Notes: generated by a model not told the origin, from the sequence alone. Shown: positions 23,344-53,833, counted from the first letter of the whole stretch. The stretch is DNA of 61,393 nucleotides, filler included, from Candidatus Woesearchaeota archaeon (GCA_030753365.1; 6 parts of 6 records of this genome joined end to end with filler, not necessarily neighbours in it), one strand, 5' to 3'. Numbers and translations: made by a program.

Positions 23344-24693
23344 ATGAATAATAAACAAAAATCAAATAAAGATTGTGAAGTTAAAATGAGACAAAAGAAT
23401 ATACAAAAAAGAGGAGAATACATAATCACAATTAAAAAATTGGTAAACGAGGATAGCAATCATTTAAATTCTAAGTACTTAGGAAATTTAGAAGATCTTA
23501 AGTTTAAGTATAGAGCTACTAAGTATTTTGGTGGTTGGAGAAAAGCGATTAAAGCGGCAGGGTTTCGACCTATAACCAATACTTGGACCAAAGATCAGGT
23601 TATAAGGGAAATTAAAGAGGTTAAGAGAGGTTTTGGATACATTCCTCATGCAAAGTATCTACACAAACTGGGTTATAGGGGCTTACATAATGGTGCAATT
23701 TCTAAGTTTGGTAACTGGAGTAATGCGTTAATGGTCGCAGGTTTTAAAGTAATGAGGAAAAAATGGAATAAAGAAAAAGTGATTAAGGAACTTAAGCTGT
23801 TGTACAAGAAAACCGGCAAAACGCTAAACTATGGTGAGCTTTATAAAAATGGTGAAAAAGGACTTGTTCAGGCAGCAAGAAAGTATCATGGTAGCTGGGT
23901 GAATGCAATGCGAGCTGCAGGATTAAAAACTCTTAGAAATGATTATTGGACAAAAGAACAACTTATGGAAGAGTTAAGGTGCGAAATTAAAACTATAGGA
24001 TATATACCATCGGGAAAAGAGTTAAAAAGAAGAGGAAGATGTGATCTAGTCTCATCAGGATCAAAGTTGTTTGGAGGATACAACAATTTTCTATCTGTAG
24101 CGGGATTTAAGCCTATTCTAATACCAAATATCTGGACCAAGAAGAACATAAAAAAGGAACTATATCTTATAGCAAAACAACTTAAACGTACACCGACAGA
24201 GCGTGATTTAATAGTTTTAGATAAAAGAACTCTAATACCAGCTACATGGAGGCAATTTAAAGGTTGGAATAATGCTATAGAGGCATATGGACTTAAAGCA
24301 AATGCAAATTTCGTTAAAGATAAAACATGGAAAACATAGGAAAAATTTGTACTAAATCTATGCAGTTCTATGTTTCCAGATTCCGAACAACATAAAATAT
24401 TACCAAACAAAACAATTCCTGATTTTTATGAACACACGATGAAAAAAATAATTGAAGTGAAAATTAACGCAGCTGATACAACAATTCCATCAGCAATTAG
24501 AAATTATTCTCCCTACTGTAATAGAATGGAAATTTGGCACTTAACAGGAAAACCTTCTAAAAATTACAAAAACAAAGTAATCTTTAGAGGACCAGATTAT
24601 ATAAGAAGCTTAATCAAAGAGGATAAAGAACTTTTAGAGGAATTTACAAAAATGCTAAATCATTACAGTCAAAATGAAAAAGAAAAACATTAG
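23344..24693 (+). pseudogene. Homing-endonuclease-associated-repeat protein with C-terminal PD-(D/E)XK nuclease; in-frame TAG at 24337-24339
   Basis: About five repeats WTKxxVIxE...FGxWxxAxxAAG; same-frame continuation WKT*EKFV...TIPDFY...IIEVK. Confidence 0.72.
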
Positions 24694-27302
24694 GAAAGTA
24701 TTAGTTTTAGGTTCTGGTGGATTGACTATAGGTCAAGCTGGCGAGAGCTTATTGTAAAGACAATAAGCCGCAAATTTGACTATAGTGGATCACAGGCCCT
24801 TAAGTGCCTTAAAGAACATGGCATTATAACGGTACTTATAAATCCAAACATAGCAACGGTGCAAACGTCCAAAGGTATGGCAGACAAAATATACTTTTAT
24901 CCTGTAACCCTTTTTTTTGTAGAAAAAATCATAAAAAAAGAAAGGCCAGATGGAATTCTTCTGGCATTTGGTGGCCAGACTGCTCTTAACTGTGGCGTTA
25001 AGCTTGAAGAAAAAGGAATTCTTAAGAAATACAATATTAAAGTTTTAGGCACCCAGGTAAAAGCAATAAAAGATACAGAAGACAGGGCTCTCTTTGTCAA
25101 AACGCTGTCTGAAATAAACTTAAAGACACCCAAAGGTTTTGCAGTAACATCTTTTGAAGAAGCAATGACTGCAGCAGACAAGATAGGCTATCCTATAATG
25201 GTAAGGATAGCATATGCATTAGGCGGCTTAGGCTCAGGAGTCTGCTACACAGAAGAAGAGCTTTTAGACAGATCAAAAAAAGCATTCTCATTCACAAATC
25301 AAATACTAATTGAAGAATACTTAGAAGGTTGGAAAGAAGTAGAATATGAAGTAGTACGGGACATATATGATAATTGCATTACAGTATGCAACATGGAAAA
25401 CTTTGATCCTATGGGAATCCACACAGGAGAAAGTATAGTAATTGCTCCTTCTCAAACATTGACAAACTCTGAATACCATAAGCTAAGAGCCATCTCAATT
25501 AGATTAATAAGGCACTTAGGCATTGTAGGAGAGTGCAATGTCCAGTTTGCACTAGACTCAAAATCAGAGGATTATAGGATAATAGAAGTAAATGCACGCT
25601 TGTCTAGGTCATCTGCATTAGCTTCAAAAGCAACTGGCTATCCTCTTGCATTCATTGCAACTAAACTAGCATTAGGCTATTCGTTAACAGAACTTCAAAA
25701 TCAAATAACAAAGAAAACAATGTCCTGCTTTGAGCCAGCTCTTGATTATGTAGTTGTCAAAATACCAAGATGGGACCTCCAGAAATTTAAAAGTGTTAAA
25801 AAAGAAATCGGTACAGAAATGAAAAGTGTGGGAGAGATAATGGCTATTGGCAGAAAATTTGAAGAGACTCTCCAGAAAGCAATAAGGATGCTCAATATAG
25901 GAATGGATGGCCTTGTTGCAAACGATGCTAAACTGAACAATATTGAAAAAGAGCTTAAAAATCCAACAGACCAAAGAGTGTTTGTTGTTGCAGAAGCAAT
26001 AAAACAGAGATATCCTATAGACAAGATATATGAACTCTCAAAAATAGACAAATGGTTCTTATATAAAATAAAAAATATAGTTGAAACTGAAGAAAAAATA
26101 AAACAGCATAACATAGAAACAATTTCTAAAGAATTAGTTTATGAGGCAAAGATTAATGGTTTTTCTGATGTTCAAATTTCAAAACTGCTCAATACAGATG
26201 AACTATCATTTAGAAAAATAAGAAAAGAGATGAATATTGTTCCCTGTGTAAAACAAATAGATACGTTAGCAGGCGAATTCCCTGCTAAAACTAACTATTT
26301 GTATCTTACTTATAATGGAACTACTGATGATATATCTTTTGAAGACAAAAATCAGGTTATAGTCTTAGGTGGAGGCGCTTACAGGATAGGCTCTTCCGTT
26401 GAATTTGATTGGTGTTGCGTTAATACAGTATTAACATTAAGAGACCTTAAGTATCCTACAATTATGATCAATTATAACCCTGAAACGGTTAGCACAGACT
26501 ATGACATCTGTGACAAACTTTACTTTGACGAATTGACATTTGAAAGGGTTATAGATATTTATGAAAAAGAAAATCCTTTAGGGGTTATTGTCTCAATGGG
26601 AGGCCAGATTCCAAACAATTTGGCAATGAAGTTCCATAATAATAATATAAGAGTATTAGGAACTGATCCCCAATCGATTGACAATGCAGAGAACAGACAC
26701 AAATTTTCAAAACTACTTGATAAACATAGCATAAAACAGCCAGCTTGGAAAGAATTAACAAATATAGAAGAAGCAAAAAAGTTTGCAGAGAAAGTAGATT
26801 TTCCAGTTCTGATAAGACCAAGTTATGTGTTAAGCGGCGCAGCTATGAGTGTTGTATTCAATGAGCATGACCTTGAAGAGTTCATATCTAAAGCATCAGA
26901 AGTTAATAGGGAACATCCTGTTGTGATTAGCAAGTTCGTGATGGGGGCTAAAGAGATAGAGATTGACGCAGTGTCAAACAAAGGCAATATACTTGCTTAT
27001 GCAATCTCAGAACATGTAGAAAATGCAGGAGTCCACAGCGGTGATGCTACTATGGCGCTTCCGCCTCAAAAAACATATCATGAAACAATAAGAAAAATAA
27101 AAAGAATTGCCAAAGAAGTTGCAGAACATCTCAAAATAACAGGGCCTTTTAACATCCAATTCCTAGCAAAGGATAATAAAGTCAGTGTAATTGAGTGCAA
27201 TCTAAGAGCATCAAGATCATTTCCTTTTGTATCAAAGGTGTTCAAAGTAAATTTCATAGAGCTTGCAACCAAGGCCATCATGAACGAGCAAGTAGCCAAG
27301 AT
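24674..27302 (+). CDS. carB: Carbamoyl-phosphate synthase large subunit, N-terminal part, interrupted by a 29-nt insert (24746-24774); truncated by gap
   Basis: Removing the insert gives [36 protein letters not shown]..., in frame with ORF 24859. Confidence 0.95.
24746..24774 (+). other. Putative BHB-type intron in carB mRNA
   Basis: Perfect 9-bp hairpin GCTTATTGT-AAAG-ACAATAAGC; removal restores the conserved motif and frame. Confidence 0.75.
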
Positions 27303-27402
27303 NNNNNNNNNNNNNNNNNNNNNNNNNNNNNNNNNNNNNNNNNNNNTTAATTAATTAANNNNNNNNNNNNNNNNNNNNNNNNNNNNNNNNNNNNNNNNNN
27401 NN
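27303..27402. other. Artificial contig spacer (others at 40770-40869, 45239-45338, 50436-50535, 57741-57840)
   Basis: N run, TTAATTAATTAA, N run; 100 nt each. Confidence 0.98.
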
Positions 27403-28367
27403 TAGATGGCGATTCTGATAAGAACCTTAACGATGGCGATTCAATTGACGAAAAAGCAAGACCTTCATCAACTGTTAAGTTTGATATAAGGCTTGATAAC
27501 AGGTTTAGTGATGATGACGATATAGAAATAGAAGATATTGAAGTTACAATAATCATTGAAGAGATTGATGAAGGCGATGACCTTGAAGAGGTTTTAGACG
27601 AGTTCGACTTAAAACCTGATAAATGGAAAAGAGTACAGCATGAATTCAAGCTTCCTTTAAATATTGGTGAAAGCACTTATAATGTTGTCATAACTGTTGA
27701 AGGCGAAGATGAGAATGGAGTTACACATATTAGCGAAGCAAAGCTTTATCTTGAACTAGATAAAGAAAGCCATGAGATTGTAATCAGCAAGTCTAGCTCA
27801 TCTCCTAAAGAAGTAAGCTGTGGAAACAGTTTTGTGCTTGATGTTACTGCAACTAATATAGGCTCTCATAGCGAAGACGAGGTTATCATAAGCATAATCA
27901 GTACTGAACTAGGGGTTAATATCAACGAAGAGACACCAGAACTTGACAAAGATTATGATGATAATGAGAACAAGTTCAACAAGGATTATACAATTGAAGT
28001 GCCAGAGAACAAAGCTGCAGGCAGATATCCTATTGATATAAGAGTATATTATGATACAGATGAGATAAGCGATCATGTTAGAGAATTTATCACAATAAAA
28101 GCATGCAGTGATAGTGACGATGACGATTCAACCACTGACACATCAGATGATTCAGTTACTCTTATAACTGGTAATGATGGAGATGACACTATGCCTCCAA
28201 CTATACAGCCTGATGTTCAGCCTTGGACTCAAGACGCTGTTGACAGCACAACCAAAATAACCTTTACTAAATCAAACGCTTATGTGGCACTGCTTGTATT
28301 AGCTAATATAGCTTTAGTAGGAGTAGTTGGTATTATGGTTGCTAAGTTCCTGTTCTTAAGACCATAA
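27403..28367 (+). CDS. S-layer-like surface protein, C-terminal part with membrane anchor (partial)
   Basis: Frame open from the gap; acidic beta-rich domains, D/T/S linker, C-terminal TM helix. Confidence 0.75.
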
Positions 28368-28384
28368 TTAATATTTCTTTTTAA

Positions 28385-28702
28385 TTAATATTCTTCTACT
28401 TCAGGAATATCTATTTTAATTTCTTCTTCATCAGGTTCTTTATTCTCTTCAGAACTTTCTTCCTTTTCTACATCATTATTAGTCTCAGGGTCATTGAATA
28501 TGCTTCCAAAGGCTGTCTCAACCTTTTCTATCTCTTCCTTGTCTGCAACACTGCTTTCAGCAGCAGCATTATCATCAGAGAATATGTTGCTCTTATTCAC
28601 ATAAACATCCTTATTTTCTACTTCAAGAAGGTTGGAAAGCATTTGTATTATCTTCTTTATTTCATCTTTACTGTCTTCTTTTGTGTCTATTGTGATTTTC
28701 AT
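28385..28702 (-). CDS. Hypothetical acidic protein
   Basis: MKITIDTKEDSKDEIKKII N-terminus, acidic tail. Confidence 0.7.
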   Translation of the reverse strand: MKITIDTKEDSKDEIKKIIQMLSNLLEVENKDVYVNKSNIFSDDNAAAESSVADKEEIEKVETAFGSIFNDPETNNDVEKEESSEENKEPDEEEIKIDIPEVEEY

Positions 28703-28808
28703 AAGGATTTTATTGAAAGCGGAAGTTAAAAAAGGTTTCTATTTAATTTTGTTTTAGAAGTTATAACCATTGAGTAATAGTAAAATATATAAATGAAGAG
28801 TTATTTCT

Positions 28809-28910
28809 AATAAAAAATCCCAATCGCAGCAAGCTGCGGGGTATTTTTAGTATTTAGTTTGCGTATTAAGCCGATGCAAGCATCGGGGTATAAAACCCAA
28901 ACTAAATAAT
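28809..28910 (+). mobile_element. 102-bp twin-hairpin element, copy 2 (between TATA box and start of ORF 28926)
   Basis: Identical to other copies. Confidence 0.85.
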
Positions 28911-28925
28911 TAAATAAGTGATAAA

Positions 28926-29720
28926 ATGTCTAACAAAGAATTAAGACAAGACCTAAGGATAAGAGGAGACAACTTAGCAGAGCTTGCTAGAAAGCTTCAT
29001 AGCATAATCTCAAGTGACAACCCAGACGCAAGTTCAGTTGGTTTTGAATATCAAACATATTCTTATCCAAGATATCATGAAAAGAAAGATGATGATGAAG
29101 GAACAATTGAACACTTCTTTGAAAATTTAGCTGCTTTAAGTCCAGAGAATGTCGTACATGAAGATGAAAAAGGAAACGTACTATTAGATGAAGAAAGTAT
29201 TGTTAGCCTAGTTTCTCAGTATGACAAAAAAGGTAAGATGATATTTATTCTTACACAATCTTCTAATTTTGATGATGCCCCTAAGATAAATAATATGCAA
29301 TCACATATTGAAAACTCTGATTTAAACCTTACTTTAAAAGATAAAAACTTGGAAGAAGGATTAACATACAGGGTTAAATGCGGCAAAAAAGAAGGTAAGG
29401 GAGCTGCATATGTTGGATTACAAATAAAAAGGGTTGCCTATACGAGAATTGAAAAAAGATTAATGAAAGCAAAACAAAGATTGATGAAAGGTTATTCAGG
29501 GAAAGTTATAAGACATTTCTCAAAACCTGAACAAAGAGAAAAAGTGAAAGATGGCTTAAGAGAAGTTAGAGGAAAATTAAAGACCCTAGCAGATTACATA
29601 AGTCTTTGTTCAAAGCCATTATATATGGATATAGAAATATATGGAAAAGAGAACATGTCACCAAGAGAAGATACAGAAGCGCTTACCATAGGAAAACTTT
29701 TCCCAAAACAAGTATTATAG
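28926..29720 (+). CDS. Hypothetical protein
   Basis: 264-aa ORF with GTGAT RBS-like site. Confidence 0.7.
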   Translation: MSNKELRQDLRIRGDNLAELARKLHSIISSDNPDASSVGFEYQTYSYPRYHEKKDDDEGTIEHFFENLAALSPENVVHEDEKGNVLLDEESIVSLVSQYDKKGKMIFILTQSSNFDDAPKINNMQSHIENSDLNLTLKDKNLEEGLTYRVKCGKKEGKGAAYVGLQIKRVAYTRIEKRLMKAKQRLMKGYSGKVIRHFSKPEQREKVKDGLREVRGKLKTLADYISLCSKPLYMDIEIYGKENMSPREDTEALTIGKLFPKQVL

Positions 29721-29743
29721 AACTAAAGAAATTTCTATCCCTG

Positions 29744-30310
29744 CTAAACAGAGCCTTCAAGAACAGGCAAATCTAACTTACTTACATCTTTTCTAAACTC
29801 TTCTATTGTTTTTATATCATCTCTGTTCACATAAAAGTATTCAATTTCCCGGGATTTAATTTCCTTTGGCATTCTACAATGATATATTTTACATTGCATT
29901 GGTTTTATTTCCTGTATACCACATTCCATCCTTCCTTCTTTTAAGAAGTATCCTAGAATATGAAACATTCTTATTGCTTTCTCTTTAACAGTTTCAATAG
30001 GTCTCTCTATTTTAGATTCAATTTCCTCTAATTGAACCTGTTTTTCTCCTTTTCTAACAGCAAAGATACAAAGAGACTTATACTCTTTTGGCATATATCC
30101 TTCCTTAAAAGAAACAATTTTTTTATTAAAGAACTTATCAAAATCTTCTGCTCCTAAATAATCAAGCACTTGTTGCGCTTCTCCTTCAAACAAAAAAGGA
30201 GGATTATAACAACAATATGTGCTTCTACAATTACAACTATATTCACTTGTTATCTTCAGTATTTCATCCAATGGTGTGGTTGCTTTGATTTTTGGATTAG
30301 ACATATTCAT
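29744..30310 (-). CDS. YkgJ-like cysteine-cluster protein
   Basis: CNCRSTYCC...LCIF...CGIQEIKPMQCKIYHC. Confidence 0.7.
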   Translation of the reverse strand: MNMSNPKIKATTPLDEILKITSEYSCNCRSTYCCYNPPFLFEGEAQQVLDYLGAEDFDKFFNKKIVSFKEGYMPKEYKSLCIFAVRKGEKQVQLEEIESKIERPIETVKEKAIRMFHILGYFLKEGRMECGIQEIKPMQCKIYHCRMPKEIKSREIEYFYVNRDDIKTIEEFRKDVSKLDLPVLEGSV

Positions 30311-30366
30311 TAAAGAATTTAAATTTATTTTTAAAGATTAGGTATTTATTACTTGTCAAGAATGAA

Positions 30367-31140
30367 TTAGAAAACCCTTCCAAAATTCATATAAATATTA
30401 TTCACAACTTCCTGTTCATCCATTCTCTTAATCTCTGCTATTTTCTTTATTGTTTCTGTTATAAAAGCAGGCTCATTCCTTTTATCTTTGTAAGGAGAAA
30501 GGTATGGCGCATCTGATTCTGTAAACAACTGTGACAAAGGAACTTCTTTCACAAGCTCCTGGAACTGCTGCGTTCTCACAACAATAGCAGGTATGGAAAA
30601 ATACCATCCATTCTCTTGTATTCTTTTAACTAATTTCTTCTTGCCGCAGAAACAATGCATTATCACTTTCTTTAGCTTAAAACTCTCAAGTATTTCTATG
30701 CATTCTTCTTCAGCTTTCCTTGAATGCACTATCACAGGCTTCTTTAATTCTTCAGCTAATTTAAGCATCTCCTTGAAATCTTCTATCTGCCCTTCGTCTC
30801 TGCCATTCACAAAGTCTAAGCCAATTTCTCCTATTGCAACAATATTATCTTTATTAGCTTTAATAAAGTCAATCTCTTTAAGAACATCAAACTCTTCTAA
30901 TTTAAGAGGAAACTCACCATCCTTAGTTTCTCTTTTTAAAGCTGACCTTGGATAAACTCCCAGAGAACATTGTATAATATCATATTTCTTAGCAAGCTTT
31001 AATGCCTTCCTATTAGTCTCAGGGTTAATGCCAGCAGTAATCACTGCTTTAAACCCAGCTTTCTTTGCATTTTCTAGTACTTCATCTAAGTCATCCTTAA
31101 AGAGTTCAAGATGTGAATGAGTGTCTGTTAGTAATTTCAT
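30367..31140 (-). CDS. tatD: TatD-family deoxyribonuclease
   Basis: DTHSH, GEIGLD, HSR, HCF, ESDAPY. Confidence 0.93.
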   Translation of the reverse strand: MKLLTDTHSHLELFKDDLDEVLENAKKAGFKAVITAGINPETNRKALKLAKKYDIIQCSLGVYPRSALKRETKDGEFPLKLEEFDVLKEIDFIKANKDNIVAIGEIGLDFVNGRDEGQIEDFKEMLKLAEELKKPVIVHSRKAEEECIEILESFKLKKVIMHCFCGKKKLVKRIQENGWYFSIPAIVVRTQQFQELVKEVPLSQLFTESDAPYLSPYKDKRNEPAFITETIKKIAEIKRMDEQEVVNNIYMNFGRVF

Positions 31141-31141
31141 T

Positions 31142-32038
31142 TTAATTAACATAAGCACCTAGTATCCAGGCTTCTATATTATCAAAGTCTCCTAATTTCT
31201 TTAAAGCTTTGTCTTGTATTTGCCTTATTCTTTCTCTGCTTAAATGGTATTTATCACCAGCCTCTTTTAATGTTAATGGAGTTCTTCCATTCAGTGCAAA
31301 TCTATCTCTTAAGACATCTGCTTCTCTTTCAGTTAAAGTTTCCAAGACCGAGTCAATTGTTTCAATCAAAGCGTCATTTAAAGCATCTTCTTCCATATCA
31401 TAACTTAAATCCTCCATGAAATCTACTAGACTTGAAAAAGCCCCATCGTCTCCTGTAGGAACATCAAGAGAAACAGGTTGCATATTATCAGCATCTAATG
31501 TTCTTTCTACTCTCTCAACCGCCATATTCAAGTTTTCTGCAACTAATTGTAAATTTGCTTCATATCCTATTTTTTCAAGTCTTTTTTGTTCTTTTCTTAT
31601 TCGATTCAATTCAGAAACTCTATTTATTGGCATTCTAATCGTCCTGGCCTGATCAGCCAATGCCCTGAAAATATTCTGCCTTACCCACCAATAAGCATAA
31701 GAGATTAAATGGTAACCTTTCTCAACGTCAAACCTATTTACTCCTTCAATTAATCCAATATTTCCCTCATTAATAACCTCTAAAAGAGTAAGACCAAAAT
31801 ATTGGTATTTTTTTGCAACATTAACAACAAACCTTAGATTCGCCTTAACAAGTTTATCTTTAGCATATTTATCTCCCTTATCAGCTCTTTTGGCATACAT
31901 AACTTCATCTTCTCTTGTGAGCATTGGTATTCTATTTATCTCTTTAAGATACATAGGCAAAATTTCCCTGTCTTCTCGAGAACCATTTCCTCCCACATAA
32001 TCTATTTTTTCCTTGACTCTTACAGTTGCATATGGCAT
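31142..32038 (-). CDS. Bacterial-type sigma-70 family factor (RpoD/RpoS-like, regions 1.2-4)
   Basis: YLKEINRIPML, ANLRFVVNVAKKY, EGNIGL, SYAYWWVRQ, SRERIRQIQDKALKKL. Confidence 0.92.
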   Translation of the reverse strand: MPYATVRVKEKIDYVGGNGSREDREILPMYLKEINRIPMLTREDEVMYAKRADKGDKYAKDKLVKANLRFVVNVAKKYQYFGLTLLEVINEGNIGLIEGVNRFDVEKGYHLISYAYWWVRQNIFRALADQARTIRMPINRVSELNRIRKEQKRLEKIGYEANLQLVAENLNMAVERVERTLDADNMQPVSLDVPTGDDGAFSSLVDFMEDLSYDMEEDALNDALIETIDSVLETLTEREADVLRDRFALNGRTPLTLKEAGDKYHLSRERIRQIQDKALKKLGDFDNIEAWILGAYVN

Positions 32039-32218
32039 TTTTAATTAGACTCCCGCCTTATATTTCAATTCCTTATAAGAAATTATATTATAGCTTATAA
32101 AATTATTGTAACGATGCAAGAAAATATTTCCATTTAAATTTTTGTCATTAATTTCCTCATTTCCTTTATACGCATTATAGGAGATTTATGATGTACTTTT
32201 CTTTAAATTTAAGTAAAA

Positions 32219-32311
32219 TGGGGCCGCGGAGACTTTCAAACCATTAATGGCTTTTGAACTCCGGTTACCAGACCCCCAGCCTGGTATCATTCCAAGCTAG
32301 ATCACAGCCCC
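32219..32311 (-). tRNA. tRNA-Pro(GGG) with 20-nt T-loop intron (32233-32252); first 10 nt overlap the LAGLIDADG ORF end
   Basis: GGGGCTG/CGGCCCC acceptor, CCAGG-CTGGGGG-TCTGG anticodon arm, spliced T-loop TTCAAAT. Confidence 0.88.
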
Positions 32312-33129
32312 AAATGATTTTTCACTCTAGATAAATGTTTTTTATTTGAAAATCCTATTTCCTTTATATATATTCTAACTTCATCTTTTTTATACAAAGT
32401 AACGGAATAAGGAGTGTTTTGGATAAATGTAAGATTAAAATAGTTTGCCATCTTTTGTAAATCAGTTAATAAGTTAGACGCCCTGTTGTGAAAAGAGATA
32501 TATAGTTGTTTATCACGTTTATGGTAGTGCGTACAACCATCTGTATCAATCATTCCTCTTATACAGTATCTTGAGAAAGTTTTGTTGGTTTTAATCCACT
32601 TGGGTACTTGAATATTTCTTTTTACTTTATTACCTTGACCCAAACCATATTTTTCAAGAAGTATCCTTAATTCTTTACTATATACATATATAGATACTGA
32701 TTTAGACCTTTTACTTTTATATACTTTTGGTCCTATTCCGAACAATTTCTTAAATAGTTTTTTTATATGTTCTTTAAATTCCTGTTCTTCACTACTTATA
32801 ATTATTCTTATGCTATCCCTATAAATATTTCCATCACCAAGCATTATACCAATAAATTCTGCAAAATCTTGGACCTTACCTTCAAATTGTATTTTAATGG
32901 GTTTAAGATACTTTCCAAAATTTCTTTCTGAATGGAATTTTGCTTCGATTAGCTTCAATGATTTTCTAGGAATCCTGCTTATTTTTACTATTACATCCAA
33001 TTGACTTTCAGAAATTGATTTGCTTTTATATATGAGATTCTTCAAATTAGTTCTTATTGATGTCTTTAATAGCTTTTTATAATACTGTCTTAGTAGTTGC
33101 CTTATTAGTAAATTAATTTTGTATCTCAT
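32302..33129 (-). CDS. Free-standing two-motif LAGLIDADG homing endonuclease
   Basis: FAEFIGIMLGDG and YCIRGMIDTDG; no intein splicing motifs. Confidence 0.88.
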   Translation of the reverse strand: MRYKINLLIRQLLRQYYKKLLKTSIRTNLKNLIYKSKSISESQLDVIVKISRIPRKSLKLIEAKFHSERNFGKYLKPIKIQFEGKVQDFAEFIGIMLGDGNIYRDSIRIIISSEEQEFKEHIKKLFKKLFGIGPKVYKSKRSKSVSIYVYSKELRILLEKYGLGQGNKVKRNIQVPKWIKTNKTFSRYCIRGMIDTDGCTHYHKRDKQLYISFHNRASNLLTDLQKMANYFNLTFIQNTPYSVTLYKKDEVRIYIKEIGFSNKKHLSRVKNHLGL

Positions 33130-33142
33130 GTAATTTCAGGTG

Positions 33143-33194
33143 CTGGAGATCAAATTTATAAATCTTTTGATAGACCAAGCTACACTACGGCCCC
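33143..33194 (-). pseudogene. Orphan 5' half of tRNA-Pro, probably with a 19-nt intron
   Basis: GGGGCCGTAGTGTAGCTTGGTCTATCA...CTCCAG; perfectly complementary to the 3' acceptor strand at 32220-32226; TATA box about 28 nt upstream. Confidence 0.75.
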
Positions 33195-33250
33195 TTTACA
33201 TAAGAAGAAAACCGCAACCAATATAAATAACTAATCAAAATAAAGATTAT

Positions 33251-44930: not shown

Positions 44931-44988
44931 TAATTTATCAATCCTCTGTCATTATATAAACACTTCTCCAATGCAATATATATTTTTG

Positions 44989-45090
44989 ATTATTTAGTTT
45001 GGGTTTTATACCCCGATGCTTGCATCGGCTTAATACGCAAACTAAATACTAAAAATACCCCGCAGCTTGCTGCGATTGGGATTTTTTATT
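44989..45090 (-). mobile_element. 102-bp twin-hairpin element, copy 4 (inverted), abutting tnpA
   Basis: Exact reverse complement of other copies. Confidence 0.85.
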
Positions 45091-45092
45091 TT

Positions 45093-45238
45093 ATGAAGCA
45101 TATTTGTAAGGGGATTGAAAAAAGATACTTTCTTCGTTTTGATGCTTTAGGTTACGAAAATGATCATATTCACTTAGTGGTTGAGGGTGCTCCTCGTTAT
45201 TCTCCTTCAAGAATCATGCAAATCTGTAAAAGTGTTTT
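45093..45238 (+). mobile_element. tnpA: IS200/IS605-family Y1 transposase fragment (N-terminus missing, cut by gap)
   Basis: ICKGIEKRY...ENDHIHLVV...PRYSPSRIMQICKS with HUH motif. Confidence 0.85.
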
Positions 45239-45338
45239 NNNNNNNNNNNNNNNNNNNNNNNNNNNNNNNNNNNNNNNNNNNNTTAATTAATTAANNNNNN
45301 NNNNNNNNNNNNNNNNNNNNNNNNNNNNNNNNNNNNNN

Positions 45339-46217: not shown

Positions 46218-46225
46218 CATGATAA

Positions 46226-47368
46226 ATGGATACAATATTTAAAACTTATAAGGACGTTTTGCCAAAGAAAATGCTGGAAGAAGTAAAAGAGAATCTTCCT
46301 AAAAATGTTTCTTCTGAAAAGCTAAAGAAAATATTAGCAAAAGTAAAAGAAGAATATTTCAACTCAAAGGCAGAGCCAGGAGAATGTATAGGATTGGTTT
46401 CAGCAGAATCCATAGGAGAACCAGGCACTCAGATGACATTAAACACATTCCATTTTGCAGGAGTTGCAGAGATGAATGTTACCATGGGTCTGCCAAGAAT
46501 AATCGAAATACTTGACGGAAGGAAAAAGATAAAGACTCCTATGATGGAAATATACTTGAAAAAGCCATATTCTGAAGGCAAGAACATAAAAGAGATAGCT
46601 TTCTCTATAAAAGAAACAAAAGTTGAAGAAGTTATAGATGAGTTATCTATGAACATCACTGAGCTAAGTGTTGAGCTTAAGCTTGACAAAGCTAAAATGA
46701 AACAATTAAATGTAACCGAATCCATGCTCTTAAAAATCTTAAGCAAAGACCTTAAAGGTACATCAATCAAACAGAAGAAAGATATAATCGTCATAAAGCC
46801 TAAAATAAAAGAAGACGAAATGAACGAAATTTATAAAACCAAAGAAAATGTTAAAAAGATTTATTTAAGGGGCATAAAAGGCGTTACCCAGGTATTGCCA
46901 GTCAAAAGAGAAAATGAATTCATAATCATCACTGCAGGATCCAACCTAAAAGAAATCTTCAAGATAGACTGTGTTGATACAACAAGAACAATAACAAATG
47001 ACATCCATGAAGTTGAAAAAGTATTAGGTCTCGAAGCTGCAAGACAAACAATCATAGAAGAAGTATTCAAAGTAATTGAAAGTCAGGGTCTTAATGTAGA
47101 CGTAAGGCACATCATGTTAGTTGCTGACACCATGTGTTCCACTGGCACTATCAAAGGGATCACCAGATTTGGAATAGTTAGGGAAAAAGCCTCTGTGCTT
47201 GCTAGGGCATCCTTTGAAACACCTATAAAACATATCATCGGCGCAGCTTTAAAAGGAGAAGTAGATAAATTGGATTCAGTAGTAGAAAATGTCATGATTA
47301 GCCAGACAGTTCCTATAGGAACAGGCCTACCAGGATTAGTAATTAAGAAAAATGAAAAAAACAACTAA
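46226..47368 (+). CDS. rpoA2: RNA polymerase subunit Rpo1C (A'')
   Basis: SIGEPGTQMTLNTFH, LARASFE. Confidence 0.97.
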   Translation: MDTIFKTYKDVLPKKMLEEVKENLPKNVSSEKLKKILAKVKEEYFNSKAEPGECIGLVSAESIGEPGTQMTLNTFHFAGVAEMNVTMGLPRIIEILDGRKKIKTPMMEIYLKKPYSEGKNIKEIAFSIKETKVEEVIDELSMNITELSVELKLDKAKMKQLNVTESMLLKILSKDLKGTSIKQKKDIIVIKPKIKEDEMNEIYKTKENVKKIYLRGIKGVTQVLPVKRENEFIIITAGSNLKEIFKIDCVDTTRTITNDIHEVEKVLGLEAARQTIIEEVFKVIESQGLNVDVRHIMLVADTMCSTGTIKGITRFGIVREKASVLARASFETPIKHIIGAALKGEVDKLDSVVENVMISQTVPIGTGLPGLVIKKNEKNN

Positions 47369-47630
47369 AGAAAGCAAAGCAAGCCTTGCTAAAGATCTGA
47401 AAAGCAATAAAATAATCATTGGTACAGATAGAGTTATCAAAAGCTTAAGAGCTGGAAAGCTCAGCAAGATTTACATATCATTAAACTGCAAAGATAGTAT
47501 AAAATCAGATATATCTCATTATAGTAAATTAGGAGATGTTGAGGTTATATCTCTTAAGGTTTCAAATGAAGAGCTGGGCATACTATGCAAGAAACCATTC
47601 TCTATTTCTGTATTAGGGCTGGCTGGTTAA
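47352..47630 (+). CDS. rpl30e: 50S ribosomal protein eL30
   Basis: L7Ae/L30e fold, ELGILCKKPF; operon position. Confidence 0.9.
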   Translation: MKKTTKESKASLAKDLKSNKIIIGTDRVIKSLRAGKLSKIYISLNCKDSIKSDISHYSKLGDVEVISLKVSNEELGILCKKPFSISVLGLAG

Positions 47631-47641
47631 AGAGTGATTCC

Positions 47642-48055
47642 ATGAACAAAATCAGATATGACATTAACATTATAAAATACATTTCACTGTTTGAAACCCT
47701 TGTTAGGGTAAACGTTAAGGACTGCATAGACACCAATCCAATAACCTTTATAGTTAAGCAGAACCAGATTGGCAAGGCCATTGGCAAAAATGGGGTCAAT
47801 GTTAAGAAGCTGGAAAGTATGTTTAACAGAAAGATTAAAATACTAGAATTCAATCCTGAGGTATTACAATTCGTAAAAAACGTTATATATCCTTTAAAGG
47901 GGGATGAAGTATCAAAAAGGGACAATACAGTCATAATCAATGTTAAAGACAACACAAGCAAAGCGTTATTAATCGGCAGAGAAAGTCAAAACATAAAGAA
48001 TACTACCCAAATAGTCAAGAGACACTTTGAAATTGATGATATAAAGGTTATTTAA
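47642..48055 (+). CDS. nusA: Archaeal NusA (KH domains)
   Basis: AIGKNGVNVK and LIGRESQN KH motifs; operon position. Confidence 0.92.
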   Translation: MNKIRYDINIIKYISLFETLVRVNVKDCIDTNPITFIVKQNQIGKAIGKNGVNVKKLESMFNRKIKILEFNPEVLQFVKNVIYPLKGDEVSKRDNTVIINVKDNTSKALLIGRESQNIKNTTQIVKRHFEIDDIKVI

Positions 48056-48058
48056 AAA

Positions 48059-48496
48059 ATGTCACGCAAAACAAAAGGAATGAACGCTGCAAAAAAGCTT
48101 CAAAAAAGAAGAAGAAAAAGTAGATGGAGCCATAGGTCATTCATTAGAAAGACACTAGGCCTTAAAGAGAAATCAGATCCTCTAAAAGGCGCTTCACAAG
48201 CCAAAGGCATAGTAATAGAAAAAGTCCAGTTAGAAGCAAAACAGCCAAACAGCGCTATGAGAAAATGCGTCAAGGTCCAGCTATTAAAAAATGGCAGGCA
48301 GGTCACAGCCTTCGTACCTGGCGATGCTGCCACCAAACAGATTGACGAGCACGATGAAGTGCTAATAGAATGTATTGGCGGAAGAATGGGCAGGTCAAAA
48401 GGCGACATTCCAGGTGTCAGATGGCAGGTTATAAAAGTTAACGATCAAAGTTTAAATGCCCTATTAAGAGGCAAGATTGAAAAAGCTAGGAGATAA
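48059..48496 (+). CDS. rps12: 30S ribosomal protein uS12
   Basis: [18 protein letters not shown]. Confidence 0.97.
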
Positions 48497-48510
48497 AACA
48501 GGAGACAGAG

Positions 48511-49110
48511 ATGACAGCACTAAAAGTATTCAACAAATGGGACGTAAAAGACATTAAAGTAGAAGACCCTGGCTTAATAAATTATATCACTCTTGAGCCT
48601 AAGATAGTCCCCAAAACAGGTGCAAGATATGCTGGCAGCAGGTTCCACAAAAGCAAAATCTTCATAGTTGAAAGATTAATCAATAAGCTAATGATTCCTG
48701 GACATAAGGGAAAGAAGCATTTCAAAAGCAGTTCAAACATCACAGGAAAATCAAACACTGCTTATGACATCGTTGAAAAAGCTTTCACACAAATAGAAAT
48801 TAAAACCAAAAAAAATCCAATAGCAGTATTCGTCAAAGCAATAGAAAACGCTGCGCCAAGAGAAGAAATTCTCACAATAGAATATGGCGGAGCCAGATAT
48901 CCAAAAGCTGTAGAATGCGCTCCTCAAAGAAGAATAGACCTTGCCTTAAGATACATGGTACAGGGAGCATTCCACAAATCCTTTGGAAAAAAGGTATCCA
49001 TGATAACCTGCTTAGTAGACGAAATCATCAATGCATACAACTGCAGCCCAAACTCCAACGCAATAGCAAAGAAGAACGAAGGAGAAAGGCAGTCAGACGC
49101 TAGCAGGTAA
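48511..49110 (+). CDS. rps7: 30S ribosomal protein uS7
   Basis: IVERLIN, ENAAPRE, APQRRID. Confidence 0.96.
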   Translation: MTALKVFNKWDVKDIKVEDPGLINYITLEPKIVPKTGARYAGSRFHKSKIFIVERLINKLMIPGHKGKKHFKSSSNITGKSNTAYDIVEKAFTQIEIKTKKNPIAVFVKAIENAAPREEILTIEYGGARYPKAVECAPQRRIDLALRYMVQGAFHKSFGKKVSMITCLVDEIINAYNCSPNSNAIAKKNEGERQSDASR

Positions 49111-49219
49111 AGTATCTTAATTCTATTTTAGTTATTCTTTGTTTCAATTCTTATTTTTATTATAGAAAACTATATAAACAGTAACTTCTCAGATTTACTT
49201 AATTCTAATTCAAAAAAGA

Positions 49220-50266
49220 ATGTTACCCTGGCACAAAAAACTCAAATTCAGAGGAAATCCTTTAGATGCACGGCCCAACCCTAACCTTGTTGGGTTAGAT
49301 GAAGAAGAAGAGCAGCTAAAAAACCATATTGTAAAAGAAGAAATCTGCTTTCTCAACGGCTTAACTGGCTCAGGCAAAACATCCTTACTCCACAAAATGC
49401 AAAAAGAGCTAAAAGGCTACTCCTTTATCTACCTTGATGCCCAAGATCTTCCACCTGATTTCAATCTTGAACAAGCAATATCAAACAAAAAAAGCTTCTT
49501 TGACATGATAAGCCTTAGAAGATTTCCCAAAAACAAGCCAGTACTAATCATAGACGAATTCCAGGCAACCGACCCAAGACTAATTCTTGAAGCAAGAGGT
49601 AAATGGGAAAATAGGGGAGACAATAAAATCAAAAGCATAGTCATTGCTCAAATCAACAGACAATTAAAAAACGTTTCAGACTCTTTCAAGGACAGGCTAG
49701 GCAACAGAATCATAACACTCAAAACCTTAGACGAAGAAGAAATGAAAGAAATATTAAAAAGAAGGCTTCAAAACAAAAAAACAGGCATAAACTACCTCAC
49801 CAGGCTAAGTGAGGACGCACTAAACCTTCTTATCAAATGCGCTGACGGCAATGCCAGAAGGCTATTGGAATACACAGACATGATCTTTGACTTCCATCAC
49901 AGAAGGTTCAAAGACATAAACCCCATAGACCGGGACAATTATTTTATCTCATACTATGCAGCAAAAGAGATATTGGAACAAAATAAAATCAATGTAAGAG
50001 CTTTTGAAAAACAGGCAGACGAAATAAGCTCCTTCTCAAGTAAGCAATTCTCAGAACTTCAGGAAAGGCTGTTAAGATTCTTGATAGACTATGACAGGGT
50101 AACCGTTGACACCGTAGCCAAAACCCTAAAAATATCTGTCAGCACAGCAAGAAGAAGCATATCCTCACTAAAAAAGAAAAAAGCAATACTCATTGCAGGC
50201 AAGAAAAACAGAAAAGAACTATTGGTAATATCACCATCTGTAAAAAGAGTGTTAACAGAAGAATAA
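49220..50266 (+). CDS. P-loop AAA+-type ATPase with C-terminal HTH
   Basis: GLTGSGKT, IIDE, GNARRLL, C-terminal HTH. Confidence 0.8.
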   Translation: MLPWHKKLKFRGNPLDARPNPNLVGLDEEEEQLKNHIVKEEICFLNGLTGSGKTSLLHKMQKELKGYSFIYLDAQDLPPDFNLEQAISNKKSFFDMISLRRFPKNKPVLIIDEFQATDPRLILEARGKWENRGDNKIKSIVIAQINRQLKNVSDSFKDRLGNRIITLKTLDEEEMKEILKRRLQNKKTGINYLTRLSEDALNLLIKCADGNARRLLEYTDMIFDFHHRRFKDINPIDRDNYFISYYAAKEILEQNKINVRAFEKQADEISSFSSKQFSELQERLLRFLIDYDRVTVDTVAKTLKISVSTARRSISSLKKKKAILIAGKKNRKELLVISPSVKRVLTEE

Positions 50267-50535
50267 TCATTTCACATTCTTCCAATAAAACTTGAACATC
50301 CTAATCTCTTTTTCTATTAATTCTTCAGAAAATATTTTTTGATCAATAGTTCCATCCTTCCTATACTGCGCATCAAACTCATACTCTTCAAAAATATCAT
50401 TAGCTCTCTCAATCCAGCCATCAGTAAACTCCACANNNNNNNNNNNNNNNNNNNNNNNNNNNNNNNNNNNNNNNNNNNNTTAATTAATTAANNNNNNNNN
50501 NNNNNNNNNNNNNNNNNNNNNNNNNNNNNNNNNNN

Positions 50536-52357
50536 CATAAGAGCCTCCGTCAAGATATGTTCCAAGAGTATTATTAATCTGGATTGGAGTGAGCCAGCCG
50601 GAATAGCTGTATGTTAGGTTTTCTTCATTGTCAGGATCAATGCCTAAAGGAAATATTTCAATTGGCTCTCCTACATCAATGATGATGTTAGAGTTATAGG
50701 AAGGATCAAAAGGCTGGCTTGTTTTGTTGTAAACCACTACAGGAGTTCTTCCATAATAAGTTGTGAAATATCCATAATAGTAAAAGCTGCTGTTTACTGA
50801 GTAGTCTATAAAGTCAAGCGCTGGCCTTCTGTTTTCAACTGCAAAAAGGAATACAAAGGGCTCGCCATCTATTAAGGATTGGTTGTCTGTTATCATGTAT
50901 ACATCTGAATAGTTTCCACCATTATCGCAATCATGGCATACTTCTTCATCTTCATATTTTGTTATGTTCATCCCAGATTCCAGACATGACCTGGTGAATA
51001 CGTTCCTTGTGCTGCTGCTAACATTAAAGTTAGGGCAATTGTTTAGCGTATTTGCTTCAGTTTCCATGTCAAAGAATATGTTGCCTACATCTTCTTTTAT
51101 AAGATGATATGCCAGCTCATAGATTTTCTTGAATCTTATTTTTAGGTCTGTGCTGTATAATAAGAATTTTGTAACTGGAGCTTCTCCTTCAACAGTGATT
51201 TTTAAAGGGTATTCCATTGTGATATATACATTGTTCTCTCCGAAGAGAACTTCTGTGCTTATGTTTCCTTCTTCAAGTTCAAAGCCTGTTTCGGGAATGA
51301 ATGAGGAGAAGTCTATGCAGTTGTCAACTTTTTGGGCTATGTATTCTTCAAGATAAGTTTGGACAGTGTGAGGGCTTGCTGCATTATATAGATCTTCTTC
51401 GCAGGAGAATTTGACAGATGCGTCTATGTAGTTAGAGCCCTGCCTTGAACATAACGCTCTCAGGTTTGAAACTTTGTTGGGCTTTGACGGCAGATAGTTG
51501 CCAAGGGAGTTTCTTACAGTAAAGTTGTCTATTTCTATTAGGGTTCTTAGGTTGCCTTCATAAGGGTAACCTGGCACAGTAGGATGATATTTTGAGCCGT
51601 CTAGTCTTGGCCTGATGATGGAATATATTAAATAGGGTACATAATTTACAGAATAATTAACAAAAGGAATACCTAGAATGCCTATGTCAGAGCTAGAGTC
51701 AAAAGATGGGCCGGTTTCTATATTAAGGCCAAAGATGTTGACATAGTTGGAATATACAACCCCTCCTTGCAGCCCGGCCAGTATTAATGCTTCTTTAACA
51801 CTATCATCAAGGCAGATTTGCACATAGTTCTTGATTGCTGGCGTCTCCAAAGTGTCAGAGGACATCTTCTTTACTTCTTTCTTAAGTTTTGTTTCGGTTA
51901 CGGAACGCTTTAGGTAGAACATAAAGAAGAAAACGGATATTAATACGATGCCAAGCAGGAAGAAGATGGTGAGCTGGGATTTTTTATTGTGGTTGAAGTA
52001 AATAAAGCAGGCTAATAAGGTTATGAATAATGACCATGTGACCATTATGAAGAGATTTGGCTGGGCTAGAATGAAGTTTCTTGTTTTTTGAAGGCTTAGT
52101 TGGTTGTCTTGAAAGAGAATAAGGTTGTAAGTTGAAGGTTTTGGGCTTTGTTGAGCAGAGTAGGATGGTTTGATAGATGATATGGCGGTTATTTTGCCAA
52201 AAGTGCCGTTTAGATAAGAAGTTGATACTTTTCTTGTGAAAGAGATTTGAGGAGTGTCATCGCTGTAAGCTGAGGCAAAGGGGAGTATGGATAGGTTTAG
52301 TATCATCCAGATTAGGAGAATGAATCTTAAGAACTTGGTCCCTTTTTTGTGGTGCAT
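50536..52357 (-). CDS. Large membrane/surface protein with internal class III signal-like motif (partial)
   Basis: N-terminal signal, TM helix, then KKSQLTIFFLLGIVL; DPDNEENLTYSY. Confidence 0.7.
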
Positions 52358-52440
52358 AAGGTTTTATTGGTATGAAGGTTATATATATATATTTTCATAA
52401 CTTTTTTATAATCCTTAAGTTATACTATCTTAAAGGTGAT

Positions 52441-52788
52441 ATGATGATAGAACCAATACAGATTGTGGGGATTAAAGAGTTGGATGATACTGATAAGGAT
52501 ATTGTGAATAAGCTTGCGAATGAGTATTTTGTAAAGATAAAGAGGAAATTGAAGAATTTTACTTCTCTTTTGATACATATTAAGTGTTCTAATAAAGATG
52601 GCAAAAAGAAAATGTATTCTATTAATGCAAGGGTGACTGCACCAACTAGGATGTTTGAATCTACAAAAGCGGCTGACTGGGATTTGGCTAGGACACTGCA
52701 CAAGGCTTTTAAGGATTTGGAGAGGGAGATAGAGCATAAATTGCATACTGATGACCAGCATGATAAGGTTAGTGAAAGGCTGGTTTAG
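52441..52788 (+). CDS. Putative HPF/RaiA-like ribosome-associated protein
   Basis: AGGTGA RBS; beta-alpha-beta3-alpha pattern ending DWDLARTLHKAFKDLERE. Confidence 0.55.
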   Translation: MMIEPIQIVGIKELDDTDKDIVNKLANEYFVKIKRKLKNFTSLLIHIKCSNKDGKKKMYSINARVTAPTRMFESTKAADWDLARTLHKAFKDLEREIEHKLHTDDQHDKVSERLV

Positions 52789-52808
52789 TGGAGAATTCTT
52801 GAGAGAAA

Positions 52809-52883
52809 TAGCGGGGGTAGGATTTGAACCTACGACCTGAGGGTTATGAGCCCTCCGGGCACTCCTGACTGCCCTACCCCGCT
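52809..52883 (-). tRNA. Initiator tRNA-Met(CAT), no intron
   Basis: A1-U72 pair, GGG/CCC in anticodon stem, CTCATAA loop. Confidence 0.95.
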
Positions 52884-52954
52884 GTGTAGTGTGAATTAAT
52901 TAAGCTTTCTTTATAAGCCTTTTTGTTTGAAGCAAAATATATAAGAAAAAGAAA

Positions 52955-53103
52955 CGCCACGACCCGGACTTTCAATGCAAAGCGTTAGGACTTTGCTTTT
53001 TGAACCGGGAGACCCTTGCGGGAACAAGATTTCTTATTCATAAATTCCAGTCTTGCGCATTTGGCTGTAGGTATCTACACTTACCAGATTGTGCCATCGT
53101 GGC
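52955..53103 (-). tRNA. tRNA-Ser(GGA) with three introns (53060-53080 D-arm, 53031-53044 at 37/38, 52969-52998 T-loop)
   Basis: Removing 21+14+30 nt gives an 84-nt cloverleaf with long variable arm CCCGCAAGGG and G discriminator. Confidence 0.88.
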
Positions 53104-53128
53104 ATATTTAACCGAGTGGTAACTCTTT

Positions 53129-53833
53129 TTATAAACCTAACGATTCTTTTAGGGTTTTGGTCTTTTTGCTATGCCAGAATCCTATCCAATTATAGAATCT
53201 CAACCTACTTTCCTTTTTTAGGATAAATATTATACCTACAGGAGATTCAGATTTCTTTTTAGAGTTATATTCATAGTAATTGTTGTCTATGCCCATATTA
53301 TTTAGAATATTAGATATCTCTTTCATTCCATTTAGATTAATTGTTTGTACCTTTATACTTTTGCTGTTAACATACGCTTCTGCTGAGAAGAATGCCTTCA
53401 ACCAGTTTTCTTTTGCACCACTAATTCTAAATAGAATCTTTGGTAATGTCCACTTTTTTAATCCAAATTCTGCAAGGTTATATAAATCCTCAACAACTAT
53501 TTTAGAGGTAAAACGAACAGAATAAAATTTATTATCTTTTTTAACTCTTGGAATCTTATTGTAAATTGTTTTTATTTGTCTTATATAGGTATCCATCATA
53601 ATATCATCATCTGGGAAAAAATCTATTTGATAATGATAAAATGTTTTTTCTTTTCTTTTTTGGACGCTACCATCACCTGCAAGGAATCCGCAAATAGCTG
53701 CTTTCATTATTAATGAATTGGAATTACTAGAAATTCCTTCTTTCTCCTTAGCGTGAACTCTATTCCAACGTGCTAATGCTACTTTCTTATTTCGTCTTGA
53801 AAAATTCATAATTCCTAGCTTATTTAGGAGCAT
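53129..53833 (-). CDS. Free-standing two-motif LAGLIDADG endonuclease
   Basis: AAICGFLAGDG and WLKAFFSAEA. Confidence 0.85.
   Translation of the reverse strand: MLLNKLGIMNFSRRNKKVALARWNRVHAKEKEGISSNSNSLIMKAAICGFLAGDGSVQKRKEKTFYHYQIDFFPDDDIMMDTYIRQIKTIYNKIPRVKKDNKFYSVRFTSKIVVEDLYNLAEFGLKKWTLPKILFRISGAKENWLKAFFSAEAYVNSKSIKVQTINLNGMKEISNILNNMGIDNNYYEYNSKKKSESPVGIIFILKKESRLRFYNWIGFWHSKKTKTLKESLGL

Follow-up and report, generated by a model that had tools for sequence, protein, structure and literature searches.

Free-standing homing endonuclease genes beside conserved genes with bulge-helix-bulge micro-introns in a Woesearchaeota genome: a possible archaeal form of collaborative homing

Introduction

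In a Candidatus Woesearchaeota archaeon, free-standing homing endonuclease genes lie beside conserved genes that bear very short introns of the bulge-helix-bulge (BHB) type, and in the two protein-coding hosts concerned, carB and porA, such inserts were found exclusively in genomes that also carry the endonuclease gene at the same locus. The best explanation overall, to which we assign a probability of roughly 55%, is that homing endonuclease genes and BHB introns spread jointly in archaeal protein-coding hosts, as in collaborative homing. The DNA analyzed (hereafter the window) is a stretch of 61,393 bases in which six contigs of this genome are joined by N spacers, namely C69 (positions 1-27302), C71 (27403-40769) and C75 (50536-57740), plus C72, C73 and C76; the genome, labeled G000, comprises 897 kb in 78 contigs, with a completeness estimated at 94.5%. 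Genomes of the same order bear G labels, G001 being a congener, and fetched loci bear L labels, while the homologues recovered from databases are named Candidatus Woesearchaeota or Nanoarchaeota. An earlier note on this DNA had reported three endonuclease and intron-gene pairs on three contigs, each endonuclease being co-oriented with its target, and both statements were borne out (C69, C71 and C75). To our knowledge, BHB introns possess no mobility machinery of their own and are almost never found in protein-coding genes.

Introns and nuclease gene at carB

The plus strand of contig C69 carries a homing-endonuclease-like gene, the N-terminal part of which (23206..24339) comprises a conserved 45-aa head and four DNA-binding repeats of the HNH_repeat family (PF18780, Pfam E 2.9e-30), described as 'homing endonuclease associated repeats'. 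This open reading frame (ORF) is closed by an in-frame TAG at 24337-24339, and the same frame reopens up to 24693, encoding a C-terminal PD-(D/E)XK-type nuclease domain with a PD..E.K motif (24340..24693, plus strand). The carB start codon (ATG, 24674) falls inside the nuclease ORF, with an overlap of 20 nt. As judged from the translation and from relatives that have the motif uninterrupted, the first exon of carB (24674..24745, plus strand) consists of 24 codons ending in IGQAGE and is followed, 52 nt past the nuclease stop, by a 29-nt BHB-type micro-intron at a position termed site B (24746..24774, plus strand), which was recognized by its sequence, its minimum free energy (MFE) fold and the restoration of the frame. 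The insert splits IGQAGE from FDYSG and shifts the frame, and its removal gives back the protein motif seen in 14 relatives. The second exon (24775..27302, plus strand, from the ORF list) extends to the contig end, the carB frame being otherwise open for 869 aa, with 84% aa identity to G001 over the 300 aa compared. This anatomy agrees with the earlier description of a repeat plus PD-(D/E)XK gene overlapping the carB start close to an intron. The C-terminus of carB resumes on contig C72 (40937-41779); the two contig ends (27220-27302 and 40937-41190) overlap by about 80 codons with few differences (AKEVAEHLKITG versus AKEVAKHLNITG), and the assembly break within carB is probably due to strain variation.

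In order of sequence, the G000 insert consists of 1 nt, a 9-bp stem with a 4-nt loop, 4 nt pairing to the exon GGCG and 2 nt, and its MFE fold gives helix, bulge, helix and bulge. The same arrangement was observed in all five carB inserts read, the order being 4 nt of exon, a bulge of 3 nt, a hairpin, 4 nt that pair with those exon bases and 2 nt; if the cut on either side falls behind the second base of the bulge, the frame and the consensus residues (GSGAIKIGQ, GSGALKIGE) are regained. In the carB introns, the central helix is made up of three Watson-Crick pairs and one G.A or G.U, whereas that of the porA introns described below has 4 bp; the first bulge has 2-3 nt and an outer helix is present only in G000 carB, which corresponds to a relaxed BHB form. 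Excision at the predicted cuts restored the frame and the conserved protein in 7/7 protein-gene inserts (five in carB, from G000, G001, L187 and twice L188; two in porA, from G000 and G011), and the in-frame inserts of L187 (carB) and G011 (porA) contain stop codons. As hairpins of 21-32 nt with BHB-like flanks, these inserts are not self-splicing group I introns. G000 encodes both the BHB splicing endonuclease EndA (PF01974, 94.9 bits, G000:C7:10349-10606) and the ligase RtcB (E 4.9e-155, contig C21), by which the carB and porA inserts are presumed to be spliced from the mRNA.

A carB match was present in 16 of 60 relatives of the order, and the motif was readable in 14 of them besides G001. 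In all 14 of these nuclease-free relatives, the motif IG[QE]AGEFD[YF]SG was found without insert, and no nuclease homologue was detected within 1.5 kb upstream of carB. Five further nuclease-bearing genomes were fetched (L185-L189), of which L185 was left out of the tally, its nuclease being truncated and carB absent. In addition to the 29-nt site-B intron of G000, introns were observed in G001, in which a 29-nt intron stands at a site A located 23 nt upstream of site B (GSGA|IKIGQ) beside an intact nuclease gene, in L187, with a site-A intron of 30 nt that is in frame and contains TAG, and in L188, a double-intron allele with a site-A intron of 32 nt and a site-B intron of 21 nt. The site-A introns of G001 and L187 resemble each other by eye. 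The two remaining carriers, L189 (IGQGGE) and L186 (IGQSGEFDYST), have the nuclease gene and an intron-less carB, and both show substitutions in a motif that is otherwise invariant. Therefore, introns occur in 4/6 evaluable nuclease carriers versus 0/14 nuclease-free relatives (Fisher p of about 0.003, by hand arithmetic and ignoring phylogeny). In the CarB tree, the carriers are scattered and nuclease-free lineages are interspersed, with G016 and G032 as neighbors; the nuclease label needs four changes, at least two of which are forced by strongly supported branches, and the carriers formed a single clade in 0/200 bootstrap trees.

Fifteen studies contributed a total of 20 metagenome runs, marine or from hydrothermal vents, in which the carB locus was also found; these 20 listed holders are DNA runs, with no RNA run among them. 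The 29-nt insert and the nuclease TAG were unchanged in contigs from four independent runs and, therefore, neither of them is an assembly error. Among the metagenome contigs at this locus, no joint without the intron or without the nuclease gene was seen.

Concerning the nuclease itself, its family has 19 members in the protein collection, all with HNH repeats and a C-terminal domain, and the gene is intact in 5/6 carriers read next to carB. The residues P301, D302, E313 and K315 of the PD..E.K motif are invariant in 16/16 aligned homologues, and an AlphaFold2 model (mean predicted local distance difference test score, pLDDT, 77) gives an alpha-beta-beta-beta-alpha-beta core in which D302 directly precedes the strand E303-305 and E313/K315 lie in the following strand. 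The top Foldseek rows were the restriction endonucleases PspGI and Ecl18kI, the catalytic domain of EcoRII and the homing endonuclease I-Bth0305I, all at weak E-values of 4e-3 to 0.3. Thus, according to the model, the tail would have a catalytic D...(D/E)xK motif on a PD-(D/E)XK-type core. The matches of the tail to Tox-REase-7 (E 8.7e-4; 20 bits, cut-off 25) and to DUF7487 (26.5 bits, cut-off 27) are sub-threshold; a PDB sequence search returned nothing relevant, and a Protein Atlas comparison yielded scores of at most 0.87, which serve as leads only. In the alignment, the place of the G000 TAG is taken without exception by Trp in 16 homologues, and the G001 copy has this Trp; because the stop splits the N-terminal repeats from the nuclease domain, the gene is read as a pseudogene in G000. 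Amber suppression of this codon was considered and rejected, given that the 'tRNA-Pyl cta' called by ARAGORN is a misparse of tRNA-Arg(TCT) at 750-858 and that TAG also terminates the same gene.

Intron and divergent endonuclease gene at porA

Outside the window, on another contig of the same genome, reading of the flank of a free-standing LAGLIDADG gene (G000:C61:19121-20317) revealed a second interrupted protein-coding gene. The gene is divergent to porA, its start being 55 nt from the porA start, and porA reads MAKK...YPITPQ, followed about 100 nt into the gene by a 32-nt hairpin insert of the BHB type (G000:C61:18939-18970) and then by THIVEKLA. For the survey of this locus, 27 loci were read; four further matches, for which no locus was available, and three distant forms with fusions were set aside. 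The insert and the divergent LAGLIDADG gene were present together in two of these 27 genomes, G000 and G011, and neither was present in the other 25. G011 belongs to a different family from G000, and its 30-nt porA intron occupies the same site; both introns end in GTGG, which pairs with the exon CCAC, and their hairpins differ by compensatory changes. The two LAGLIDADG genes share 58% identity (tblastn E 1e-136). In a PorA tree of 26 rows, built without G013 on account of its internal stop, G000 does not group as sister to G011, and the relevant branches are weak. Neither a porA match nor an EF-1alpha match was found in G001, hence no comparison with the congener is available for either gene.

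Endonuclease genes and introns at tRNA genes

An intron-aware scan of our own identified 25 tRNAs in G000 with a clean score gap, 20 of which have one to three inserts, and 22 tRNAs in G001, 15 of them with inserts; in the whole of G000, Rfam gave 16 tRNA matches at E up to 1, of which 11 were above its own cut-off. With such a proportion, an intron in an endonuclease-adjacent tRNA of G000 is expected anyway.

On contig C71, a LAGLIDADG homing endonuclease gene of 275 aa (32302..33129, minus strand; PF14528, E 1.6e-10, 41.5 bits against a cut-off of 22.5 bits for LAGLIDADG_3), with the motifs GIMLGDGNIY and GMIDTDGCT identified by eye, overlaps by 10 nt the 5' end of an intron-containing tRNA-Pro(GGG) (32220..32311, minus strand; scan score 18.3), as had been pointed out previously, its last codons (LGL*) being the first tRNA bases. 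This tRNA has a replacement 5' half (GGGGCTGTGATCTAGCTTGG...), a D-stem ATCT/TGAT and a T-loop intron of about 20 nt at about 32233-32252, and it folds into a complete cloverleaf whose D-stem is compensated. Upstream of the LAGLIDADG gene lies a displaced native 5' part of tRNA-Pro, positions 1-24 (GGGGCCGTAGTGTAGCTTGGTCTATCA; 33168..33194, minus strand), which stops after position 24 and is followed by a TATA-like TTTATAAA box and then by the endonuclease gene. The first 24 nt of this 27-nt piece are found exactly in G005 and with at most three mismatches in 16 relatives; among the relative matches listed, 18/19 continue directly into tRNA-Pro-like sequence, and the displaced part pairs perfectly with the 3' acceptor strand CGGCCCC. 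The same cassette layout was observed in G010, with an endonuclease 78% identical but a tRNA-Pro(CGG); as a scale for this pair of genomes, EF-1alpha is 79% and PorA 41% identical. Taken together, the sequences point to an endonuclease cassette inside the ancestral tRNA-Pro gene, which would have brought a replacement 5' half. Such a cassette with its new 5' half would alone destroy the target, so that immunity could be explained without the T-loop micro-intron. A giant BHB intron spanning the LAGLIDADG gene was rejected, as no BHB pairing was visible by eye at the junctions and the 3' acceptor strand of G010 corresponds to the 5' half located downstream and does not match that lying upstream.

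Other observations concern the same tRNA and its surroundings. The T-arm and T-loop intron of the G000 tRNA-Pro(GGG) (32233-32252) are 96% identical to those of the G001 tRNA-Ile(GAU) (L031, about 1511-1530), meaning that the same intron is common to different tRNAs. Within the interval 1501-1660 of L143 (G016:C34), an intron-less tRNA-Pro(GGG) has its 3' end (GAATCCCCGCGGCCCCATTCTTT) repeated about 75 nt further on, a pattern that resembles the att duplication of an integrated element. Directly downstream of the G000 tRNA-Pro, a complete bacterial-type sigma-70 factor gene (31142-32038, minus strand) was found, with Pfam regions 1.2, 2, 3 and 4 above cut-off.

On contig C75, a LAGLIDADG gene of 234 aa (53129..53833, minus strand; PF14528, E 1.4e-11, 45 bits; GFLAGDGSV and FFSAEAYV by eye) ends 25 nt before a tRNA-Ser(GGA) (52956..53103, minus strand; scan score 17.25), whose three inserts are located at 25/26, in the anticodon loop and in the T-loop; the earlier note had described this triple-intron gene in the same way, and both Rfam and ARAGORN miss it. 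A tRNA-Arg(TCT) served as comparison case (750..858, plus strand), with an intron of about 30 nt at 26/27 and, as previously stated, no adjacent endonuclease, there being no PF14528 match on contig C69. For tRNA-Ser and the other tRNAs, endonuclease adjacency is real, but no role has been shown for the introns that they contain.

A multi-copy palindromic element (...GGTTCTTGAGCATGCTCAGAATTTTC...GAAAATTCTGACAT), often located beside tRNA genes, is present in the window at 22649-22808, with further copies in G000 at C34:1640-1790 and 2030-2180, C28 about 21230-21350 and C47 about 1040-1170. The window copy shows a many-fold higher depth and many contig ends in metagenome contigs, and the element may be a miniature inverted-repeat transposable element or a shared promoter module.

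Endonuclease genes in the genome and in the order

The PF14528 matches of G000 fall into two groups, domains within large ORFs and seven free-standing genes. The former, in open frames of 660-982 aa on contigs C7, C35, C25, C10 and C38, are probably inteins. Together with the carB nuclease, eight free-standing endonuclease genes were thus counted, and micro-introns are present in the neighbors of six of them: the TAG-broken HNH-repeat/PD-(D/E)XK gene overlapping the start of carB (C69), the LAGLIDADG genes overlapping the 5' end of tRNA-Pro (C71), 25 nt upstream of tRNA-Ser (C75), 34 nt upstream of a multi-intron tRNA (C47) and divergent to porA (C61), and a broken LAGLIDADG gene abutting the 3' end of tRNA-Ile(GAU) (C28). 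The other two overlap the start of metK (C16:2630-3514) and the 3' end of rtcB (C21:4496-5431). In G001, the homologue of the metK-side gene converges on an iscU-like gene, with 2 nt between it and the 3' end of the latter.

A tRNA gene is abutted by 4/7 free-standing LAGLIDADG genes, which is more often than chance would give, the tRNA share of the genome being about 0.6% by a rough estimate (about 45 genes of about 120 nt). In the order, 45 of 201 genomes have a homologue of the LAGLIDADG family at E of at most 1e-10. According to a strict scan, the interval from -48 to +43 nt around the LAGLIDADG ORF stop contains a tRNA end in 14 of 30 fetched loci, with G010 as a 15th by eye. In ten of these 14, it is the 5' end and the two genes are co-oriented, and in the other four it is the 3' end and they are convergent; without the genomes flagged as unpublished (L162, positive, and L175, a miss), the count is 13/28. 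On five endonuclease loci, Rfam at E up to 10 returned no tRNA, although tRNAs were visible by eye.

Proposed mechanism and alternative explanations

According to the proposed mechanism, free-standing homing endonuclease genes of two kinds, the LAGLIDADG family and a carB-specific HNH-repeat/PD-(D/E)XK family, would insert in this archaeal order next to, or within, those parts of essential genes that are most conserved, the host targets including the ends of tRNAs and, in carB and porA, the motif-coding 5' portions. In protein-coding hosts, the conserved motif DNA (the IGQAGE/FDYSG region of carB and YPITPQT in porA) would be the recognition or cleavage site, and the BHB intron of 21-32 nt would break this conserved DNA beside the endonuclease gene, being removed from the mRNA by host EndA and RtcB. 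The intron, or alternatively a motif substitution, may make the carrier allele uncuttable, and the endonuclease gene and the intron would travel together by co-conversion or be inherited together. An arms race that sets enzyme specificity against target could have left its traces in the existence of two carB sites, in the allele with both introns and in the substituted motifs of the intron-less carriers. The tRNA-Pro gene would be protected instead by the cassette, which splits the gene and supplies a new 5' half. The dead nuclease of G000, whose intron persists, is as expected of a homing endonuclease after fixation. The earlier suggestion that nuclease and intron covary across genomes was sustained for carB (4/6 versus 0/14) and porA (2/2 versus 0/25) and was not shown for the tRNAs; likewise, the suggested archaeal collaborative homing with introns as immunity marks fits the exclusive co-occurrence in protein-coding hosts, was not shown for tRNAs and has to give way to a different mechanism, the cassette, in tRNA-Pro.

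Several points weigh against joint spread. Introns in tRNAs are common regardless of endonucleases (20/25 in G000 and 15/22 in G001), and tRNA-Gly(CCC) is 97.6% identical, intron included, between G001, which has the endonuclease, and G000, which is without it. On the other hand, tRNA-Ile(GAU) has, in our own reading, about four inserts in G000, beside the broken endonuclease gene, versus two in G001, without one. Because these same-tRNA comparisons with and without endonuclease point in different ways, the role of tRNA introns as immunity marks is not shown. Moreover, the intron is absent in 2/6 carB nuclease carriers, no intron was seen in metK and rtcB, which account for 2/8 endonuclease neighbors in G000, and the genomes are few and the relatives not independent. 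The weak PorA tree allows one origin of the porA intron and endonuclease, and the porA-side endonucleases of G000 and G011 (58% identical) are no closer than PorA itself (67%), for which reason vertical descent with repeated joint loss may also account for this pair.

Furthermore, the rarity of mRNA introns away from endonuclease genes is not established, as it rests on noisy or insensitive screens. A genome-wide scan for BHB motifs with ORF merging gave 17,023 candidates and 1,063 clusters in spite of filtering, which is too noisy in an AT-rich genome with long antisense ORFs. A blastx split-alignment screen of G000 against G001, which is blind to short first exons, returned 7 and 10 pairs, mostly short ORFs (which may be RNA genes) or frameshift-like cases, with no clear micro-intron in a large protein. 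A search for short upstream exons gave low-complexity noise only, a weak negative, since carB was missed too (score 22, threshold 28).

The alternative that survives best, which we nonetheless consider unlikely, is that the neighborhood has no function: endonucleases would settle by conserved, reliable targets and BHB introns would be independently abundant, so that their adjacency would be incidental. The frequency of tRNA introns in both genomes, the intron of tRNA-Arg away from any endonuclease, the identical state of tRNA-Gly(CCC) with and without one and the uninterrupted metK and rtcB would all be accounted for in this manner. However, it leaves unexplained the restriction of inserts to carriers at carB and porA, their position within about 55-160 nt of two unrelated endonuclease families, and the changed invariant motif in the intron-less carB carriers.

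A causal link in the opposite sense, in which the endonuclease provokes intron gain, appears improbable. Repeated breaks would be repaired with the capture of short hairpin DNA, only BHB-forming inserts surviving, and no co-mobilization would take place. Such a process would suit the two carB sites located 23 nt apart, the double-intron allele, and introns that differ in sequence between sites, with each 3' end tailored to its own exon; nevertheless, neither repair scars nor target duplications were seen, and the site-A introns of G001 and L187, as well as the porA introns of G000 and G011, look homologous by eye, which suggests that they were inherited or transferred rather than made anew each time. 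Finally, that the inserts are not introns at all, carB and porA being decaying pseudogenes, genes with internal starts or assembly artifacts, is very improbable, for even if the listed carB-locus holders include no RNA run and the G000 nuclease is itself a pseudogene, the insert is identical in contigs of four independent runs, the carB frame is open for 869 aa with 84% identity to G001 over the compared 300 aa, the BHB rule restores frame and consensus residues in 7/7 inserts and the in-frame inserts (L187, G011) carry stop codons.

A broader form of the joint-spread reading is a tentative possibility: homing endonucleases may drive the origin as well as the spread of archaeal BHB introns, protein genes included, in which case an intron would arise in, or be copied into, the cut site, give immunity and move by co-conversion.

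Relation to known systems

Zeng, Bonocora and Shub reportedly described collaborative homing in 2009 for the free-standing F-CphI beside the intron-containing psbA of cyanophage S-PM2. As in that system, a free-standing endonuclease gene adjoins a conserved gene in which an ORF-less intron, located tens of bases away, is proposed to interrupt the cut site, the two spreading jointly. Unlike the self-splicing group I intron of psbA, the introns described here are BHB introns of 21-32 nt that need host EndA and RtcB, and they occur in cellular archaeal genomes with predicted cutting enzymes of the LAGLIDADG and HNH-repeat/PD-(D/E)XK types. PMC6083498 treats the topic of collaborative homing in phages. 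In the trans homing of phage T4 mobE and I-TevIII, a free-standing endonuclease mobilizes flanking DNA, including a neighbor unable to move alone (PMC2790892). Unlike the archaeal case, that example involves a phage, an HNH enzyme and a group I intron with a defunct endonuclease.

LAGLIDADG endonucleases such as I-DmoI are encoded inside archaeal rRNA BHB introns. They share with the present genes the enzyme family and, for the intron, the host splicing system; here, in contrast, the endonuclease gene is free-standing, outside the intron, and the intron is ORF-less. LAGLIDADG enzymes inside archaeal rRNA BHB introns are also mentioned in a section of PMC2738675 that describes the BHB intron of the crenarchaeal cbf5 pre-mRNA as 16-44 bp long, too short for a nuclease ORF, with gains and losses among relatives. 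The same section makes no link to an adjacent endonuclease, and the cbf5 intron differs from those of carB and porA in phylum and gene, the latter involving two hosts, several sites and a double-intron allele. The common traits are short BHB introns in archaeal protein-coding genes.

Randau and Soll reportedly suggested in 2008 that the disruption of tRNA genes, by introns or by splitting, is a protection against mobile elements that integrate. Their proposal shares with the present one the idea that an interrupted conserved gene is a protected target site; it concerned virus and plasmid integrases and tRNA genes, whereas the best support here is for homing endonucleases and protein-coding genes. 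In the literature searches, no published link of BHB introns to free-standing endonucleases was found, nor any publication on mRNA introns in these archaea.

Implications

Very few archaeal protein genes are on record with tRNA-type introns, and carB and porA can now be counted among them. In such genomes, the annotations produced by gene callers and tRNA finders contain errors, as illustrated by the 11 tRNAs that Rfam places above its cut-off in a genome of 94.5% estimated completeness. The natural intron-plus, intron-minus and substituted carB alleles, together with intact nuclease genes, make the linkage testable at the bench. The route by which archaeal BHB introns reach new, non-canonical positions is a standing question, and the linkage to homing endonucleases, if true, would supply a mechanism for it.

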